Shown: positions 2,707-28,479, counted from the first letter of the stretch. The stretch: DNA of 64,000 bases from Eledone cirrhosa (GCA_964016885.1 OZ024746.1:101928001-101992000); one strand, 5' to 3'. A program made the numbers and translations. The notes: generated by a model from the sequence alone, not told the origin.

Positions 2707-3053
<347 letters not shown>

Positions 3054-3724
3054 GGGAAAAGGAAGAGGAAAAGGAAAGGGAAAAAGAAAAGGAGGAGAGC
3101 ACAAGCACGGACCTGAAAGAAAATGATATACCCTCCGCTACAGGCAGGGAGGGCAGGCCGGGCAACCAACAAGCTAAGGGCAAAGGTGAAAAGCGAAATC
3201 ACCTTCCGAAGGAGAACCAAGCGCAGAGGGACCAGTGGACAACTGTTCAAAGAAAGAACAGAAAGCACCGAGACACTGGGAGCAAAAAACACCAAGTAAT
3301 GTGCAAGTTTTTCAAGAACGGGACATGCTGGCATGGAGAGACAGGGATGGGATGCAGATTCGCCCACCCTAGGTCTCAAACGAACTATGCCCATCATACT
3401 CGCGCAACATGCCCCAGCCAAAGCCGAAATAAGCCGCTCCAGAAGTATGCTGATGTCGCGCGTGCTGCACCAACAAGGAGAAGGCACGCACATGCCGACG
3501 AGATACAGATGGCAGCAGCAGATCAGAAAAATTTTTTAGTGATGGCAGAGAAGATTGTGAGACAGCTGACCTGGCTGCATCGTCTCCAGAGCCAGGGTCA
3601 TCCACACCAGCACTCGAGACCACCGCAGTTAAGGGACCCAGATTGGCCGCCGCTGACACCAGACCAGGTGTCATACCGACAGCCATTACTGGCACCCCAA
3701 AAGTCACACCAGTGCTGCTGCTGA
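3054..3724 (+). CDS. Family A ORF1, C-terminal part (CCCH zinc finger)
   Basis: Non-repetitive end of track ORF 2402..3724: [22 protein letters not shown] finger, ends SHQCCC*. No start codon because the element is truncated at the TA tract. Confidence 0.75.
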
Positions 3725-6684
3725 ATGTCAGGGGCCTGGTGAAACTCAGCAACATGAGTAAAATTTCCTACCTGGGAGACTTAGCCATAAGCAATCAAGC
3801 ACTATGCATGGCACTAACCGAAACGCACCTGACAAGCAGTATAGCAGATGCAGAAATACATATACCGAAATATACTGTATTTCGTTCGGACAGGAAGGAG
3901 AGAACTCATGGTGGGGTTGCTCTGTATATCCGTGAAGATGTCACACCAATTGTACTGTTGACACATTCAAACTCAGTCTGTGACACACTGATAATACATA
4001 TGAAGCAACTACAGACGGTAATATGTGTCACATATCGGCCGCCCGATGCCCCCAGTCATGAGGGTAAATTTGAGGATAGCCTAAGTAGGATAGAAGAGGT
4101 CCTTGACAAACTGGACCAGGGTCTCAACATCCTACTGCTGGGAGACTTCAACCTACCAAAGGTCAAATGGCCTGAGGGCCACCTCCTCCCTGGAATGACG
4201 TCAATAGAACAGAGACAGACGGAATCCCTGCTGGCCCTCACACACAGGCTGTTCATGGAGCAAGCAATACTCCTCCCAACAAGAGGCGAAAATGTCCTGG
4301 ACCTCTGTTTTACAAACAACGAAGTGCTCATCCACAATGTAAAGGTGACACCAACAATTCTCTCGGATCATAACTTGGTAGAGCTAATGATATGTGGTCC
4401 AAGAGAACCAACAGAGACAAAACCACCAAGAAGCTCCGGGACGCTATCCAGCCTTAACTTCTACGGGGCTGACTGGAAGAAGATTAAGAGTGAAATCCGG
4501 AAGCAAACATGGAGTGCAAACATCGCCACACAAGACACTAACACACAATTTCAACACTTCATGACAACGATACACACCATATGCAAAAAGTGTGTCCCGG
4601 AGAAAGAGGCAAACAGACACAAAAATCTTATTCCCAGAGATAGGAAAATCCTTATGAGACGTAGAACTAAACTCTCAAACCAGTTGAATAGTCAACAAAA
4701 CCAAAACAAGAAGGAATCCTATTTGAAACGTGCACTACTTGACACCGAGATTGCACTCAAGCTTTCACATGAGAATGAGAGGGCAAGGAAAGAGAACAGG
4801 GCCATAGAAAACATTAAAACAAACCCTAAGGCCTTCTTTAAATTTGCAAAAGAAACTGCCTCAGTACACTGCAAGATTGGACCACTCTTCCACACGGACG
4901 GTTCATTAACCGAAAATCCCCAAGAGATATGTGAAATACTGAACGAACAGTACAAAAGTGTCTTCACATGTCCACTGAGGCACATGCAAATAACGAAGCC
5001 AGAGGAGTTCTTTGATGCCACAACACTACATCAAGAAATGGCAACCATCAACCACATAGACATAACGGAGGAGGATGTGGTGTACGCCATTGATGAAATT
5101 AGAACAGACTCGGCTGCTGGACCTGATGGATTCCCAGCAGTTCTCCTAAAAATATGTAAGCGGGCCTTAGCAACTCCACTGAAGATGCTCTTCAGAAGCT
5201 CCTTGGCTAGCGGTGTACTACCCAGGGAGCTGAAAGAAGGCACAATATGCCCTATCCATAAAGGAGGTAGTAGAGCGGAGGCCAAGAACTATAGGCCAGT
5301 CTCCCTGACGTCGCATATCAGTAAGGTCATGGAGCGAGTCGTCAGAAAGAAACTAATCACTTTCCTCGAAGAAAATGACCGCCTGACTAGCACGCAACAT
5401 GGCTTCCGCCCAGGAAGAAGCTGCCTTACACAGCTGCTACATCACTACGACTGGGTACTGAGACAGCTACTAGACAGCTGACATGTAGACGTGATATATC
5501 TTGACTTTGCGAAGGCCTTTGACAAGGTCGACCACGGAATGATATGTCACAAACTACACGGACTCGGCATAACTGGAAAAGTAGGTGAGTGGCTGCATGG
5601 CTTCCTGAGGGACAGAAGCCAGGCAGTCGCAGCAAATGGGGCCCTCTCGAGGGAAACACCGATAACAAGTGGGGTGCCTCAGGGGACAGTCCTAGGACCA
5701 CTACTGTTTTTGGTGGCTCTCTCGGACATGCCCTCTGTGGTGCATGCAACAACATCCCTCACTAGCTATGCTGATGACACTAAGGTAGCACAGGCAATCA
5801 AAAACCCGGCTGACGCTGCCCTCTTACAGCAGGATCTGGATGCCATATACAGATGGGCGGAAGAAAACAACATGCAGTTTAATGCTGGCAAATTTCAAGC
5901 CCTACAATACAAACCTGCAAACACAAACACAAATATAGCGGAACACAGCTACACAGGACCAGGAGGGACCGATATCCCCGTGTCAAAATCGATACGAGAC
6001 CTGGGCATAGACATGAGCGATGATGCATCTTTTTCTTCACACATCATGAAGGTGGCGACAGCATGTAGACGATTCGCTGGCTGGATCTTGAGGACTTTCC
6101 TTACAAGAGATCGAGACACCATGTTGACACTGTGGAGGACTTTTGTCCTAAGCCGCCTGGACTACTGCTCCCAGCTGTGGTCACCCCATAGTGTCAAACT
6201 AACCACAGAGCTTGAGGCAATCCAGCGAAGCTACACCAAGAGGATTGCCAAGATGAGGGAGACAAGCTACTGGGAGAGGCTGAAGGAACTGAACCTCTAC
6301 TCCTTGGAGCGAAGACGGGAGAGATACGCAGTGATCTACATGTGGAAAATCCTGGAGGGACTAGCACCAAACTTTGGCATTGGGAGCTGGACCAACCGTC
6401 GAACAGGACGTCACTGTGTGGTGCCAAAGGTCCCGTCTTCCACATCTAGAATAAGGAGCAGGTATTGCAATAGCCTGGGATTCAAGGGCCCTCAACTCTT
6501 CAACAGGCTGCCGAGGCATCTGCGAGACTTGCATGACGTGGAGGTGGATGTCTTTAAGAAACATCTCGACACGTTGTTATCCAGGATCCCGGATGAGCCC
6601 ACAGCAAGACACGAGGGAAACCTAAGGGCAGCAGCAACAAACTCCCTCCTACACCAGTGGCCAACCTATACAGGCTGGAGATAA
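3643..6684 (+). pseudogene. Family A ORF2 (APE endonuclease + RT), interrupted by one in-frame TGA at 5479-5481
   Basis: EN motifs LLNVRG, LTETHL, YRPP, GDFN, LDLCF, SDH; RT motifs [32 protein letters not shown]. Track ORFs 3643..5481 and 5491..6684 are in the same frame, and the second copy has TCA (Ser) at this codon. Confidence 0.92.
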
Positions 6685-6758
6685 AATGTGTAGCAACAAG
6701 GGCGGTGCCCCAGCATGGCCTCAGCCGGATGGCTGAAACAGGTAAAAGAGTAAAAGAG

Positions 6759-7571
<813 letters not shown>

Positions 7572-11240: not shown

Positions 11241-11830
11241 AAATTGACCGGTTAATACATTTTCATACATCTATATTATTATATATTTGAAAATTGACCG
11301 GTTAATACATTTTTCATACATCTATATTATTATATATTTGAAAATTGACCGGTTAATACATTTTTCATACATCTATATTATTATATATTTGAAACCACGT
11401 GTTTTCGAACTTGTGAGTACATTTTCTTTTAACTACAAATTATTATTATATACTTTCGTCTTTTCATTAATTTCAAATAACCAGAATATACATATATATA
11501 TATATATATACTCATATTTATATATATACGCTTCTCACTCACACACAAGAAAAATATATATTGAAATACTTAACTAAAACACACACACACGAACTTGTGA
11601 GTACATTTTCCTTTAACTACAAATTATTATTATATACTTTCGTCTTTTCATTAACTTAATTAATTTCAAATAACCAGAATATACATATATATATATATAT
11701 ATACTCATATTTATATATATACGCTTCTCACTCACACACAAGAAAAACAAAAAACAAAAATAAATCAAAAATAAATTTAAAAAAAAAAAATATATATATA
11801 TTGAAATACTTAACTAAAACACACACACAC
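11241..11830 (+). repeat. Tandem repeats in the LINE B 5' UTR: 3 x ~50 bp, then 2 x ~184-240 bp
   Basis: AAATTGACCGGTTAATAC at 11241, 11291 and 11342; GAACTTGTGAGTACATTTTC at 11407 and 11591, both units ending TTGAAATACTTAACTAAAACACAC. Confidence 0.9.
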
Positions 11831-11841
11831 TCAAAACTAGA

Positions 11842-13008
11842 ATGGCTAACCAGCAAAAATCCAAACAGAACTGGTCTGATAATGAAATCGACATTCTAAT
11901 AAACACATGGCATTGCCTTTCCCAAACAGAAAATATAGATGCTTCATCTCTGAACGACATTGCTAAACGTACAGTTCAATTTTTGAAAACTCGATCTGAA
12001 CAACAGATTCAAAATAAATTAAAGCAAATCGAAATTGCTTTTAAATTAATCAATAAACATTTGGATAAACTACGGTGTGTTTTCTCTTCGAATGCTGTCC
12101 AGCAGCAGCAACAACAACAACAGCAGCTACAACAGCAACAACAACAACAGCTACAACAACAACATCAACAACAGCTACAACAACAACAACAACATCAACA
12201 TCAGCAACAACAACAGTGTGAACCACTCCTTGATTCATCAACAATGGCCGATCTACTAAATGAAACTATTGACCCCCCAGTAGCCTCTGTCTCACAGCAT
12301 GAAACGCCACATCCTTTCTCTGGCCCAGCAGTCCAATCATCACCACTGCCAACATCTCTGCCTACTACTACTACTACTACTACAACATTTTTGTCCACTG
12401 CTATGTCAAGGAATTTACCTTCTAATACCAGAACAAGAACTCTCCCTCCCACAGTCCACAAAGGTCGTCAAATCCTACCCAAACCATCATCTACACCTCT
12501 CACAACACCCACACCCATATACCCACCCACTCGAAACCCCATCATTTGCCGCTACTCTCTACGCTATAGAATATGTACGGATAGTGGCTGCAAATTCACC
12601 CATTTACCTAGGACAAAACGATCTATCCCCACAAACAGCCACCACCATAATACATACTCTAATTTAACACCAACACAACCACCAATAACTCAAACAAGGA
12701 ATCCACAAATCTGCCGTTTTTCCCTGCGAGACAGATTGTGTTTAGACCGGGATTGTCCCTTTACCCATCTCCCGGGGACCCGTCGGATAAATGAAAATAA
12801 AATTAAAAATAAAAGCAAAAACAAAAACCATAACCTACATAAAAATAACCACTACCACAGTCACCAACAGTCTTCTAAACAGGAAACTTCTTCCTCTTTT
12901 TTAGCCATAATGAATCTGGCAAAAGAACTGGAAAAAAACATTCGAGCTATCACCCAGCACCACCCTCCACTATCACCCCACTGCACAAACTCCCATTGCT
13001 GCCATTAA
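11842..13008 (+). CDS. LINE B ORF1: Myb/SANT(trihelix)-like N-terminus, polyQ, Pro/Thr-rich linker, two CCCH fingers
   Basis: 388-aa ATG ORF; WSDNEIDILINTW...RSEQQIQNKLKQI; CRYSLRYRICTDSGCKFTH and CRFSLRDRLCLDRDCPFTH. Confidence 0.85.
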   Translation: MANQQKSKQNWSDNEIDILINTWHCLSQTENIDASSLNDIAKRTVQFLKTRSEQQIQNKLKQIEIAFKLINKHLDKLRCVFSSNAVQQQQQQQQQLQQQQQQQLQQQHQQQLQQQQQHQHQQQQQCEPLLDSSTMADLLNETIDPPVASVSQHETPHPFSGPAVQSSPLPTSLPTTTTTTTTFLSTAMSRNLPSNTRTRTLPPTVHKGRQILPKPSSTPLTTPTPIYPPTRNPIICRYSLRYRICTDSGCKFTHLPRTKRSIPTNSHHHNTYSNLTPTQPPITQTRNPQICRFSLRDRLCLDRDCPFTHLPGTRRINENKIKNKSKNKNHNLHKNNHYHSHQQSSKQETSSSFLAIMNLAKELEKNIRAITQHHPPLSPHCTNSHCCH

Positions 13009-16000
13009 CAAACAAACAAATTAACAACACACCAAAACAATTAAAACCATCCACTCTCGCCTCTACATTTTTGCTTAACGCCCAAGGCATCAGCCCTTCC
13101 ACCAATACTCAAAAATGGAAGATCAAATTCCTGGAGGACTGGATTGATGTCCATCCAAACCACATCCCTTTCTTCGTCCTCACTGAAACCCATCTCGGTA
13201 ACCTCCACTTGGAAGCCGAGGTGAAAGTGAAAAATTTCAAAGCCATCCGTGCTGATCGCGCTGGCAGAAGAAAGGGCGGAACTGCCATTTATGTCCATAA
13301 TTCTTTCTCAACAGAGGCTATGAACATATTCACTAATGGATACTGTGAGGCAGTCACTGTATTCAGTCAAACCAACAACCTATTAGTAGTTGGGCTCTAT
13401 AGGCCACCCCAAACGCCTGTACCATGCTTCAAGGAATGCCTCAACAGCATAAAGTGTTTCATCCAAGAGTGTCACCCTGACAACATCTTAATGATGGGGG
13501 ACTTCAACCTGCCCGGAGTTGACTGGTCCACAAACACCCTGCCACCAGGTTCTTCTGCCTCAACCTCTGACAGGGAAGCTGTGGAATCGCTTCTTGACTT
13601 CATGGATGATTTCTTCCTATCCCAACTAGTGCTCGAACCAACGAGGTGCCACAAAAACGTCCTAGACTTAATTTTCAGCAATCACACTGACAATATCCAC
13701 AATATTGCAGTGGAGAAAACTCTACTCTCTGATCATGACATGGTTCTCTGTGATCTGAGATTCCACCGTCCAATATACAAACCCAATGTCATTTCTCCTG
13801 TCCATCCGTTTGACGCTATGGATTTCCACAATGCAAACTGGGAAGCGATCAGTCATGATCTTGCACATGTCGACTGGTCCTTCACGCACACTCATACACC
13901 CACTAACATCAAAAAGTCCTGGCAGACATTTGTGGACACTGTTACAAACATATGTGCTAAACACACCCCATTAAGAACTATAAACAAATCTAAGAGCAGA
14001 ATCCCTAGAAATAGAAAAACGCTCATCAGAAAAATTAAGAGAACGAACAAAAAAATCAACAATCTGAAATACTGTCAGCAGCAACACATCAACTTGACTG
14101 CCATTTCATCACTAGAGATTAAAAAACATAACCTCCAAAACAACATAATGTCCCTCATCAACAATCAGAGAAGAGCTGAAGAGGCCTGGGCCATTGAGAA
14201 GATCAAACTCAATCCCAAAGTGTTCTTTTCATTTGCAAAAAAACACAAAATCACTGGCTCTACTGTTGGCCCTCTAATTGATGAAAATGCTCTAATTGAT
14301 GAAAATGGCACTCTTCAAGACAATGCTAAAACCATGGGTGAGATACTGCAGAAACAATACTGCTCTGTTTTCAGCAATCCTGATATGGCCGATCTGGGCT
14401 GTATCGGCGATGTTACTCCCCATTACACCTTATCGGACATAACGTTTGGCGCCCCTGATGTCTTGGCGGCAATAAAGGAAATCAAGCATAATTCAGCAGT
14501 AGGTCCCGATAGGTTCCCTGCTTGTGTCTTGAAGGCGTGTCAACACCAACTTGCTTCTCCTCTTGCCAATCTGTGGCGGAACTCACTGGATGCTGGATAT
14601 GTGCCAGAAAACCTTCTATCCCAGTCTGTTGTCCCAGTTTTCAAAAAGGGAAACAAATCCCTTGCCGTGAATTACCGTCCAATCTCACTCACCTCTCATA
14701 TCATTAAGGTATTTGAGCGAGTGGTGAGATCGCGAATGACCCACTTCCTTGAGAGTAACAATATGCTGAACTCCAACCAGCATGGATTCCGTAATGGAAG
14801 GGATTGCCTGACGCAACTACTGCATCACTTTGATGACATTTTGAGAGCCTTGGGAGAGGGTTCCAACACTGATGTTATCTACCTTGATTTCAGCAAGGCC
14901 TTTGACAGGGTTGATCATAACCTTCTACTGAGAAAGCTGTCCAATATTGGTGTCACTGGAAAGCTGCTGCAGTGGATCAAGAGCTTCCTGTCAAACAGAA
15001 CCCAACATGTTGTAGTTGAGGGAGTCAAATCAAGCCCAGCCAAAGTCAGTAGTGGAGTCCCACAAGGCACTGTGTTGGGCCCACTTCTCTTCATCATCTA
15101 TATTAATGACATCACTGACATCATCAAACACAGCAACATTAAAATTTTCGCTGATGATTCCAAGCTCCAAAAGGTCATCAATGGCGTGGATGACCGGATA
15201 AGCCTTCAGTCAGACCTACTGGCTGTTACCCAATGGGCAGAAAAGAACAACATGTTACTGAACGAAGACAAATTCGAACTGATCCACTTTGGAAAAGAGG
15301 ATGCTCTGAAACTCCCGTACTCCCTTCCCTCCGGGGAAACTCTCGTGGCATCTAACAACATCAGAGACTTGGGAGTAACCGTGGACAGCAACATAAGCTG
15401 GACCACGCATATAAGCAGCAAAGTTGACATGGCCCGCAGAATGTGTTCCTGGATCCTCAGAACCTTCCAGTCGAGAGATTCCCGCACCATTATCCTTCTC
15501 TTCTCTACTTTCGCCCGACCACACCTTGAATACTGTTGTCCACTGTGGTCTCCCCACACGAAACAAAGTATCATGAAACTTGAAGCTCCTCAAAGGGCAA
15601 TCACAAAAAAGATAGATGGCATGTCAGACCTTGACTACTGGGGTCGATTGGAAAACCTGAAACTTTACTCACTCCAACGTCGCCGTGAGCGTTATATTAT
15701 CTGCATGATGTGGAAAATGTTCCATCATCACTGCCCAAATGATGTTGGCATCGCCTTCAAGATACACCCAAGGCTTGGGCCCCGTGCTATCCGTCCCATT
15801 CAAAAATCTAAATCGCAACTCATAACAACAATACGGCACAATTATTTCACCTCAATCGGCCCTGCTCTCTTCAACATCACACCAGGACACGTCAAAACAG
15901 AAACTGACCACACAAAATTCAAGAAATCTTTGGACAAATTCCTCCAAGTAATCCCGGACAAACCACCCACACCCGGATATGTCTCCGCAAACAGTAATTC

Positions 16001-16034
16001 TCTTCTCGAATGGGCCATGGTGCCCAAATCCTGA
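12996..16034 (+). CDS. LINE B ORF2 (APE endonuclease + RT), no AUG before the EN domain
   Basis: LLNAQG, LTETHL, YRPP, GDFN, LDLIF, SDH; [32 protein letters not shown]. The frame is open from 12879 and the track start is TTG. An in-frame 18-bp duplication at 14272-14307 gives [12 protein letters not shown]. Confidence 0.93.
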
Positions 16035-16121
16035 ATTGAAAGACTTCGCCAGGTGGTGCTATTAAGTTAGACATGGCCTGGGCCAATACTGGCCAAAACA
16101 TTTCAAAGTTATTCAAAGTTA

Positions 16122-19210: not shown

Positions 19211-21074
19211 TCTCTTTTACTCTTTTACTCTTTTACCTGTTTCAGCCATCCGGCTGAGGCCATGCTGGCGCACCGCCCTTGTTGCTACACATTTTATCTC
19301 CAGCCTGTATAGGTTGGCCACTGGTGTAGGAGGGAGTTTGTTGCTGCTGCCCTTAGGTTTCCCTCGTGTCTTGCTGTGGGCTCATCCGGGATCCTGGATA
19401 ACAACGTGTCGAGATGTTTCTTAAAGACATCCACCTCCACGTCATGCAAGTCTCGCAGATGCCTCGGCAGCCTGTTGAAGAGTTGAGGGCCCTTGAATCC
19501 CAGGCTATTGCAATACCTGCTCCTTATTCTAGATGTGGAAGACGGGACCTTTGGCACCACACAGTGACGTCCTGTTCGACGGTTGGTCCAGCTCCCAATG
19601 CCAAAGTTTGGTGCTAGTCCCTCCAGGATTTTCCACATGTAGATCACTGCGTATCTCTCCCGTCTTCGCTCCAAGGAGTAGAGGTTCAGTTCCTTCAGCC
19701 TCTCCCAGTAGCTTGTCTCCCTCATCTTGGCAATCCTCTTGGTGTAGCTTCGCTGGATTGCCTCAAGCTCTGTGGTTAGTTTGACACTATGGGGTGACCA
19801 CAGCTGGGAGCAGTAGTCCAGGCGGCTTAGGACAAAAGTCCTCCACAGTGTCAACATGGTGTCTCGATCTCTTGTAAGGAAAGTCCTCAAGATCCAGCCA
19901 GCGAATCGTCTACATGCTGTCGCCACCTTCATGATGTGTGAAGAAAAAGATGCATCATCGCTCATGTCTATGCCCAGGTCTCGTATCGATTTTGACACGG
20001 GGATATCGGTCCCTCCTGCTCCTGTGTAGCTGTGTTCCGCTATATTTGTGTTTGTGTTTGCAGGTTTGTATTGTAGGGCTTGGAATTTGCCAGCATTAAA
20101 CTGCATGTTGTTTTCTTCCGCCCATCTGTATATGGCATCCAGATCCTGCTGTAAGAGGGCAGCGTCAGCCGGGTTTTTGATTGCCTGTGCTACCTTAGTG
20201 TCATCAGCATAGCTAGTGAGGGATGTTGTTGCATGCACCACAGAGGGCATGTCCGAGAGAGCCACCAAAAACAGTAGTGGTCCCAGGACTGTCCCCTGAG
20301 GCACCCCACTTGTTATCGGTGTTTCCCTCGAGAGGGCCCCATTTGCTGCGACTGCCTGGCTTCTGTCCCTCAGGAAGCCATGCAGCCACTCACCTACTTT
20401 TCCAGTTATGCCGAGTCCGTGTAGTTTGTGACATATCATTCCGTGGTCGACCTTGTCAAAGGCCTTCGCAAAGTCAAGATATATCACGTCTACATGTGAG
20501 CTGTCTAGTAGCTGTCTCAGTACCCAGTCGTAGTGATGTAGCAGCTGTGTAAGGCAGCTTCTTCCTGGGCGGAAGCCATGCTGCGTGCTAGTCAGGCGGT
20601 CATTTTCTTCGAGGAAAGTGATTAGTTTCTTTCTGACGACTCGCTCCATGACCTTACTGATATGCGACGTCAGGGAGACTGGCCTATAGTTCTTGGCCTC
20701 CGCTCTACTACCTCCTTTATGGATAGGGCATATTGTGCCTTCTTTCAGCTCCCTGGGTAGTACACCGCTAGCCAAGGAGCTTCTGAAGAGCATCTTCAGT
20801 GGAGTTGCTAAGGCCCGCTTACATATTTTTAGGAGAACTGCTGGGAATCCATCAGGTCCAGCAGCCGAGTCTGTTCTAATTTCATCAATGGCGTACACCA
20901 CATCCTCCTCCGTTATGTCTATGTGGTTGATGGTTGCCATTTCTTGATGTAGTGTTGTGGCATCAAAGAACTCCTCTGGCTTCGTTATTTGCATGTGCCT
21001 CAGTGGACATGTGAAGACACTTTTGTACTGTTCGTTCAGTATTTCACATATCTCTTGGGGATTTTCGGTTAATG
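19211..21074 (-). mobile_element. CR1-group LINE family A, copy 2 (5'-truncated; RT part intact)
   Basis: Reverse complement of 4904-6758 with about 6 substitutions seen by eye. ORF open to the stop at 19294; tail has three GTAAAAGA units. Confidence 0.95.
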
Positions 21075-27200: not shown

Positions 27201-27957
27201 TGTGTGTGTGTGTGTGTGTTACCCGACATTACAGCAAATACACCTTAACATAGTTTAATTGGTTTCTATAAGAAGCAGTATTTGTGGAATCCCCTAAATG
27301 ACAAACAAAACAGTAAGGAATGAAGAGAAACCCTAAAAATTGTCCTCACAGCAACATATATCTTCCACTTTTCTTAACATATTCTTCACAGCAGTAAGAA
27401 ATAGCTTTTCTCTCTCTCATACGACACTTTATCATCAACAATATATATTATATATGTTACAGATGATGAAAATTAAGCTATTTATCTAATGCTTTATTTC
27501 AAAATGTCTGTTTTGTTCTAGAAACTATAATAATAATGAAATAATGATTTATTTCATTGCCAGAAAGACGACGGATTAATAGTAATAATACATGTTTTGC
27601 ATGATCTAATAATAATAATAATAATATAAAGTGTATTGTGACAAAGGTATAAAATATTGATTTGTGTAGTCATTGGTATAGGTCAAATACCCTAGTCCCT
27701 GTTAGAGGTATAATGTCTCCTATTAACGAGTTATTAGTGATGTCATTAAGTGGAGAAAGGACACAAACGACCAACTGCTAACGTAATAATTATACACATA
27801 ATAGACATTAACAGATAGTAACATACAAATAGCAATGAACTGAATATTATGAATATTGTTGTTGTTAATATCATCATCATCACTATTGTTGTTATTATAA
27901 CATATAATGCTTAAGGTTGTTAACCGTTTTGTCAATTTGTTAATCAGTGACTCTTAC

Positions 27958-28434
27958 CTCGTCAGTATTATCTTGAAATTGGCGTCCAGGAGTTGCATGT
28001 TCATCTTCACTGTTGTAGCCACCGTTCATGGAATCATATTCAGAAGGTGGGGAGCCACTACCGGCCACTCCGACCCCAACAGAGCCTGCTCCAGGTACTA
28101 CACTCCCGCCAACTACAACGTGAGACGAAGATGATGTCGGAGGGTGGTGACCCCCGCGAGGATCATGTCTATGTTTACGTACATTCCTGTGTGGTGACGA
28201 CCTATGCCGTCTTTTGTTGTGGTTTGGATTATTATCGTGTCCATCGTATGAGCTGCCGCCTGAATCTCGTTTATCTTCGAAAGAAGTGGAAGCAGGAAGC
28301 CATCGGGTGGGAGAATTTCTAGAACGTCCCACTTTTTCGTGTCTAGATTCGTTTGAGGACGGGTGGTGGCTGTGGTCCGTATTCTCCGGATCATTCTTGT
28401 CCTTTGTTGTCTTCTTCTTTGGAAGAATAGTCAT
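27958..28434 (-). CDS. OTUD5: OTU domain-containing protein 5 (DUBA) orthologue, first coding exon (159 codons)
   Basis: Begins MTILPKKK, as human OTUD5 does; contains HNKRRHR and GYNSEDE (the OTUD5 activating phosphoserine motif). Ends at a phase-0 donor GAG/GTAAGA (intron starts at 27957). I found no OTU-domain exon in the window. Confidence 0.9.
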
Positions 28435-28479
28435 GTTTTAGAATTAAATAGACACTTTACGTCCTTCTACAAATTTAAT

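Follow-up and report, generated by a model that had tools for sequence, protein, structure and literature searches.

How is the second open reading frame (ORF) of a long interspersed nuclear element (LINE) translated when its first in-frame ATG lies within the endonuclease domain that it encodes? This question is raised by LINE A, one of two such elements (LINE A and LINE B) in a 64,000-nt stretch of the Eledone cirrhosa genome (GCA_964016885.1 OZ024746.1:101928001-101992000), which is hereafter called the window and whose positions are counted from its first letter. In both elements ORF2 overlaps ORF1 in the -1 frame, the heptamer T_TTT_TTA is present in ORF1 phase within the overlap, and the same heptamer recurs at the junction of related elements. 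It is probably (at about 0.85) a programmed -1 ribosomal frameshift signal that yields a minor ORF1-ORF2 fusion protein, where the slip, its rate and the fusion are what we infer from the sequences.

The ORF1/ORF2 junction of LINE A and LINE B

LINE A is represented by a 5'-truncated copy on the plus strand (copy 1, 3054-6758). Its ORF1 survives as a 3' part without start codon (3053-3724, plus strand; relatives are proteins P0024 and P0025), and its ORF2 (3715-6684, plus strand) codes for an APE endonuclease and a reverse transcriptase (RT) and carries a premature TGA at 5479-5481. The heptamer occupies 3532-3538 on the plus strand, where the ORF1 codons are AAT TTT TTA GTG, and is the sole TTTTTTA within 3001-4000; a second canonical heptamer, A_AAT_TTT, is located one codon ahead (3529-3535). 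In the -1 frame, a TGA at 3451-3453 precedes an open stretch that starts at 3454, includes the heptamer and leads into LLLN (3715-3726) of the endonuclease. Within the overlap of the two frames (3454-3724, plus strand), the -1 frame codes for a low-complexity linker between heptamer and endonuclease; the overlap ends with the ORF1 stop codon TGA (3722-3724), over which lie three CTG codons. The first in-frame ATG of ORF2, at 3754, is 13 codons past the start of LLLN and behind a conserved endonuclease Asn. In Candida Zorro3, mutation of the conserved Asn near the endonuclease start reduced retrotransposition to less than 5%, according to a passage of PMC1965478. The original prediction had described the in-phase heptamer, the -1 frame open from 3454 and an ORF2 ATG downstream of the endonuclease motif; all of these coordinates proved correct, and the arrangement is beyond chance.

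It had also proposed that LINE A and LINE B share heptamer, phase and missing AUG in spite of strongly diverged ORF1s, and we found the same layout in LINE B. ORF1 of this element (11842-13008, plus strand) codes for 388 aa with a Myb/SANT-like N-terminus and two CCCH-like fingers, and ORF2 (12879-16034, plus strand) is intact. The -1 frame is open from 12879, T_TTT_TTA follows in phase 18 nt past this opening (12897-12903, plus strand), and the first ORF2 ATG, at 13320, is 84 codons into the endonuclease. The two ORF2s are 36% identical and the two ORF1s barely alignable. The Cys-rich ORF1 tips that had been noted in both elements are indeed present, but the other 14 members of the set described below all lack them; we rejected them as a common feature, since their Cys codons are the ORF1-frame reading of Leu and Pro codons of ORF2.

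Some observations concern the site in other sequences. P0024, an annotated protein of Octopus vulgaris and the best ORF1 relative, follows the ORF1 frame as far as the Phe encoded by the site, where it switches to a sequence like the third frame (compared with 3530-3640); the switch suggests that the T run has an indel in the genomic copy behind this protein. Besides, approximately 1,200-1,300 contigs from two sequencing runs of unrecorded kind fall on 3054-4400, and in four diverged contigs of one such run the exact match starts at 3532. Among four such runs, no joint ending at the AG was seen among the 15 of 45 joints listed and no variant within the heptamer among the 40 of 128 variants listed, and neither result carries evidential weight.

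Conservation of the site in related elements

Metagenome contigs were surveyed with an endonuclease alignment, a query that holds no information on the junction. At least 596 pattern matches gave 119 confirmed loci, of which 80 were kept. In the 13 top-ranked loci (L001-L013), ORF2 was always in the -1 frame, overlapped ORF1 over 118-739 nt, and was accompanied by one in-phase T_TTT_TTA each; an additional locus, L019, had T_TTT_TTG at the homologous site. Together with LINE A and LINE B, these loci formed a core set of 16 elements, which belonged to one clade in a FastTree phylogeny (local support 0.966) and whose ORF2 identities ranged from 0.26 to 0.79 (median 0.36), a divergence at which silent sites should be saturated.

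The recoding signal that the original prediction had inferred to be conserved among these LINEs found support in this set: TTTTTTA was in phase in 15 of 16 elements, and its occurrences within the 15 overlaps counted were distributed over the three phases as 15/0/0. All seven bases were fixed in 15/15 elements, including three synonymous positions. Given the amino acids and the codon usage of each element, the probability of the site was 0.002-0.047 per element, and the product over 15 elements was 1e-27, a value that overstates independence because the 16 elements share ancestry (L010 and L019 are 79% alike). As a control, none of 53 Phe-Leu pairs in ORF2 was written TTT TTA, and upstream in ORF1 no in-phase TTTTTTA was found at 3252 positions. 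Of the -1 frame codons, 99/1373 were stops upstream of the site and 0/1445 downstream, where 38.7 stops would be expected after synonymous shuffling of the 16 ORF1 tails; this zero is partly built in, as the overlap is defined by the open frame. Two features are not built in, namely that the opening of the -1 frame preceded the site by a median of 20 nt (range 6-144 nt in the 14 elements whose contig includes the stop) and that this frame remained stop-free for 109-610 nt past the site. In 11/16 elements ATG was absent from the stretch that separates the site from the endonuclease motif, three elements lacked ATG over 143-179 codons, and in 16/16 the distance of the ORF1 stop from the endonuclease start was between -62 and +7 nt. 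Three features of a programmed -1 frameshift signal were thus found: an X_XXY_YYZ heptamer that is in phase with the upstream ORF, a -1 frame open into conserved coding sequence, and conservation at synonymous sites.

The site also lies within a protein feature. In LINE A the heptamer begins a predicted amphipathic helix of ORF1 that is led by Phe-Leu (3530-3592, plus strand), a family-wide motif, and a CCCH-type zinc finger is located upstream (3302-3370, plus strand; Pfam zf-CCCH E 0.035, below cut-off; Cys and His invariant in 3/3 aligned). Among 150 ORF1 representatives (the best 150 of 2630, several being the same elements as survey loci), the helix was found without use of the site in 109, and Phe-Leu was directly ahead of it in 101. 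Conservation at the site evidently acts on both RNA and protein. The residue ahead of Phe was K, Q, E, M or W in 0/101, whereas the counts for the two positions that follow were 33 and 44 of 101; this test was not counted, as a T-ending codon and a helix N-cap fit it equally. At 50% identity, the family of CCCH-containing ORF1s fell into some 2,600 clusters, and the ESM Atlas returned unnamed CCCH clusters only, below 0.9. No natural in-frame ORF1-ORF2 fusion was present in the best 150 of 2630 representatives (the longest had 921 aa) or, by a weak search, in 2530 longer candidates.

Other members of the clade carried other heptamers. L015, with a different ORF1 type, had in-phase A_AAA_AAC and T_TTA_AAC; four more loci (L014, L025, L030 and L042) had no junction on the contig. 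An out-of-sample scan of a genome collection gave 12 loci, three of which had a CCCH ORF1 and a -1 overlap: L082 and L083, of one family, had in-phase A_AAA_AAC 21 nt past the frame opening, and L081 had G_GAT_TTT at the first open codon. Upstream DNA was readable in 20 clade members, and 19 of them (the core 16, L015, L082/L083 and L081) had an in-phase slippery-type heptamer in a -1 overlap. A viral contig collection yielded no relative in three protein scans, and its 5 pattern matches were not LINEs. L081-L085 are eukaryotic LINE contigs within records of bacterial or archaeal metagenome-assembled genomes, probably by host or eukaryote contamination. A 'VETNPGP' motif, which we take to resemble a 2A-like peptide, was seen in the ORF1 region of L007 (L007:167-500) and upstream of the L043 endonuclease.

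Outside the core set, 18 loci with a -1 overlap remained after removal of 6 near-duplicates. A canonical heptamer was in phase in 15 of them, compared with 3.0 expected (P 2e-11 if independent, which these loci are not fully), and matches by phase were 16/696, 3/678 and 1/678. A_AAA_AAC was present in eight of these loci, and for background x-Lys-Asn was written A_AAA_AAC in 1/68 cases and x-Leu-Asn as T_TTA_AAC in 3/97. The misses were L034 (in-phase T_TTT_TTG), L066 (G_GAA_AAC) and L046, in which ORF2 is broken and no real junction exists. In three of these loci (L016:1272-1330, L017:1250-1310 and L029:1904-1960), T_TTA_AAC, a coronavirus-type site, was followed at once by the ORF1 stop TAG and then by a common GC-rich stem with a 5-6 nt spacer; ORF1 of L017 is an esterase.

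Proposed frameshifting and other possible routes to ORF2

LINE A and LINE B are members of a large clade of APE-RT LINEs with two ORFs, in which ORF1 has CCCH fingers and often a PHD-like finger too. In the model that we propose, ribosomes would initiate at the ORF1 AUG, and most of them would read TTT TTA as Phe-Leu and continue through the amphipathic helix and a Gln/Pro-rich tail to the stop near the endonuclease start, giving the ORF1 protein (ORF1p). A few would slip by -1 on U_UUU_UUA and enter a Thr/Ser/Pro-rich linker that leads into endonuclease and RT. For LINE B the predicted fusion has about 354 ORF1 and 1043 ORF2 residues, beside the 388-aa ORF1p. The fusion would retain the zinc fingers, with the Thr/Ser/Pro linker in place of helix and Gln/Pro tail, and frameshifting would set a low ORF2:ORF1 ratio, as for Gag-Pol. 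The shift is placed exactly ahead of the ORF1 helix, which may be an oligomerisation element.

Stimulatory RNA structure was sought 5-50 nt past the site by folding without pseudoknots. A stem at 3567-3600 (plus strand; arms 3567-3576 and 3590-3600), which had been named earlier as following the heptamer, is present at a 28-nt spacer, where 5-9 nt is usual for stimulators (though not universal), but is not shared and not significant (z -0.41 to +0.73; 200 shuffles, 5 windows of LINE A), and it was set aside as probably not the stimulator. In the core set, z was below -2 in 6/16 elements vs 8/156 control windows. Four of them (L004, L009, L010 and L019) had a common 10-pair stem with a 6-nt spacer, in which one pair was changed on both sides and four on one side, and L012 and L013 had a shorter hairpin at similar spacing. 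A 3' hairpin at 6-8 nt is thus a feature of part of the clade, and not of LINE A and LINE B, which may rely on the heptamer and its local context or on an undetected stimulator. In alphaviruses stimulators also vary (stem-loop, pseudoknot or non-pairing), according to a part of PMC5009743.

Several observations weigh against frameshifting. An ATG was present in the first strand of the endonuclease motif in 2/16 elements and earlier in 3/16 (5/16 in all); L021, of the same clade, has an ATG-led ORF2 without ORF1 overlap, and L081 has ATGs 67 and 48 codons ahead of the endonuclease. No significant 3' structure was found by shuffle z and pseudoknot-free folding in LINE A, LINE B and eight others of the 16, and covariation in the subclade stem is thin (1/10 pairs, 4 sequences). 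The shared ancestry behind the product of probabilities and the built-in part of the stop count, both given above, belong here as well. The -1 route is common, not universal, because thirteen other loci, some of them broken copies, had a +1 layout. Finally, 14/16 elements read TTTTTTAG at the site, which is like a 3' splice site.

If TTTTTTAG were a splice acceptor, spliced RNA would join an upstream exon to ORF2 and thereby give it a start codon; AG directly follows the T run in these 14 elements, and splicing too would hold the -1 frame open from the site and fix its phase. However, L011 (TTTTTTA-T) and L019 (TTTTTTG-G) have no AG and still keep the T run in phase, CAG was found in 0/14, and the 20 nt upstream are only 5-35% T and contain other AGs in 10/16. 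Moreover, no comparable acceptor exists at this place in clade members that carry A_AAA_AAC or G_GAT_TTT, and 12/101 ORF1 proteins have, directly after Phe-Leu, an amino acid whose codons never begin with G; where G is present, it may be accounted for by Glu, Asp or Gly after Phe-Leu in the helix. An invariant AG, a pyrimidine tract and an AG-free zone were thus not found, and this reading, which the original prediction had itself named, is very unlikely because AG is lost in L011 and L019, the upstream sequence is T-poor and AG-containing, CAG is absent and heptamers were swapped.

Retention of Phe-Leu for the ORF1 helix alone, with ORF2 reached by termination-reinitiation or a non-AUG start near the ORF1 stop, we consider just as improbable. 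The helix is conserved as a protein, the amino acids found ahead of Phe (S, D, H, N, P, A, T) suit a helix N-cap, the ORF1 stop is -62 to +7 nt from the endonuclease start throughout the core set, and three CTG codons lie over that stop in LINE A. Comparable initiation of ORF2 was proposed for L1. However, such a route leaves unexplained why TTT, TTA and the preceding T are kept at synonymous positions, why 109-610 nt of open -1 frame begin at the site, and why it was swapped for other heptamers. RNA polymerase slippage on the T run could instead add a base and place ORF1 and ORF2 in one frame in some transcripts, with the same fusion as product. The six-T run is kept in 16/16 elements, but is always exactly six and never longer, and polymerase slippage usually requires longer runs. 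It also gives no reason for the codon phase and does not cover relatives with T_TTA_AAC or G_GAT_TTT, and we rate it marginally lower still.

The elements in the window and comparison with known systems

Both LINE A and LINE B have an ORF2 with APE endonuclease and RT and an upstream ORF1, and 5' truncation and a simple-repeat 3' tail complete the features of APE-type non-LTR (long terminal repeat) elements. Copy 1 of LINE A is flanked by (TA)n tracts and ends in tandem GTAAAAGA repeats, and a sequencing-run contig reaches 197 nt beyond its 5' end. Copy 2 (19218-21074, minus strand) is a 3' half only, without the ORF1/ORF2 junction; it is 99.7% identical to copy 1 (6/1857 sites differ) and has a sense codon in place of the TGA at 5479-5481. 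Membership in the CR1 clade is plausible; the trees were built with unnamed relatives. A tandem-repeat 3' end is a CR1-clade feature, and the tail of LINE A has an 8-bp repeat. Pfam found only endonuclease and RT in ORF2, and PHD matches in ORF1 of relatives were below its cut-off (E 0.0005-0.047); an ORF2 that lacks RNase H and a C-terminal zinc finger, and PHD- or esterase-type ORF1s, are also L2-lineage features in the portion of PMC4120745 that deals with them.

The animal DNA of the window is abundant in (TA)n, and LINE copies (3054-6758, 19218-21074, 11500-16100 and 2-2197) were located in or beside (TA)n and related microsatellites, possibly by target preference for TA repeats or merely by genome composition. 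The 3' untranslated regions of LINE A (6685-6760, z -1.43) and LINE B (16030-16105, z -2.24) each have two adjacent hairpins before the tail, which resemble the 3' recognition stems of stringent-type LINEs. The region 5' of LINE B (11260-11790) contains tandem and dispersed duplications that may be a modular 5' untranslated region. The remnant at 2-2197, which we presume to be RTE-like, bears an RT and an ORF ending in three C2H2 zinc fingers. In addition, a 32-kb satellite (29429-61548; 16-bp unit, about 2009 copies, 89% matches) and a minus-strand open frame of 165 codons (27940-28437), a plausible host exon, were observed.

Our data are best explained as a known mechanism in an element class, animal LINEs, where it is not demonstrated in the literature searched. 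We also lean towards a wider view, in which a retrovirus-style -1 shift is the usual route to the ORF2 protein (ORF2p) in a large part of CR1/L2-group LINEs: lineages would have exchanged heptamers (U_UUU_UUA, U_UUA_AAC, A_AAA_AAC, G_GAU_UUU) and relocated the site, which would lie at the ORF1 stop in some and deep in ORF1 in others, and the enzyme would be a Gag-Pol-like fusion with its own RNA-binding zinc fingers. If frameshifting is true, ORF2p of this clade is to be redefined as an ORF1-ORF2 fusion, ORF2 annotations with an initial Met within the endonuclease need correction, and thousands of natural cellular variants of the HIV-type shift site exist, with and without hairpin.

No paper on a slippery site in CR1-group LINEs was found in a literature search that stopped short of Repbase reports and most subscription papers. 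Frameshifting may already have been floated for overlapping ORFs in early work on mosquito T1/Q and chicken CR1. In the frameshifting review PMC5009743, the whole word 'CR1' is absent from the first 300,000 of 449,034 characters, and its passages on non-LTR elements name only HeT-A, TART and L1-type initiation and cite unusual initiation for LINE ORF2. The sections of PMC4700185, PMC5006619, PMC11835228 and PMC10294476 that were covered hold nothing on LINE frameshifting. For Paramecium elements, +1 shifting, reinitiation or readthrough was suggested in an excerpt of PMC5405496. With CR1/L2 lineages of the Jockey superfamily (Metcalfe and Casane 2014), our elements share an APE-RT ORF2 and PHD- or esterase-bearing ORF1 types, whereas the text of PMC4120745, as far as consulted, names no CCCH-array ORF1 type and says nothing on ORF2 translation.

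Mammalian L1, Candida Zorro3 and Bombyx SART1 likewise make ORF2 from a two-ORF RNA. SART1 reportedly uses UAAUG coupling for this purpose. L1 makes ORF2 independently of its AUG and Zorro3 needs its ATG (passages of PMC5009743 and PMC1965478), and these three differ from our elements, in the accounts at hand, by non-overlapping or stop-start junctions, initiation or reinitiation, and a separate ORF2p. Dictyostelium TRE5-A and TRE3-A are APE-type non-LTR elements for which a figure legend in PMC5911963 states that a -1 frameshift is necessary for ORF2; however, they are amoebozoan and have an ORF2 zinc finger, and that passage gives no slippery site or experiment.

Outside LINEs, the alphavirus 6K/TF shift belongs to an RNA virus and its product is a short accessory protein, not a replicative enzyme. 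Its shift site is U_UUU_UUA. The alphaviruses also have varied 3' stimulators within one family, like the patchy hairpins here (PMC5009743, in part). The same review, in the passages concerned, gives U_UUU_UUA as the HIV shift site, A_AAA_AAC and U_UUA_AAC as among the most shift-prone heptamers, and G_GAU_UUU as the shift site of pea enation mosaic virus, and describes structure-free stimulators. Compared with HIV-1 gag-pol, ours is a non-LTR element without a common 3' stem-loop, the site is 109-610 nt ahead of the ORF1 stop, and, unlike in HIV-1, no protease domain to cleave the fusion was detected by Pfam in the proteins scanned. The likeness to HIV-1, as far as described in PMC5009743, consists of the same heptamer with G as the next base in 14/15 elements, and of an RT that is encoded in the -1 frame behind a structural ORF.

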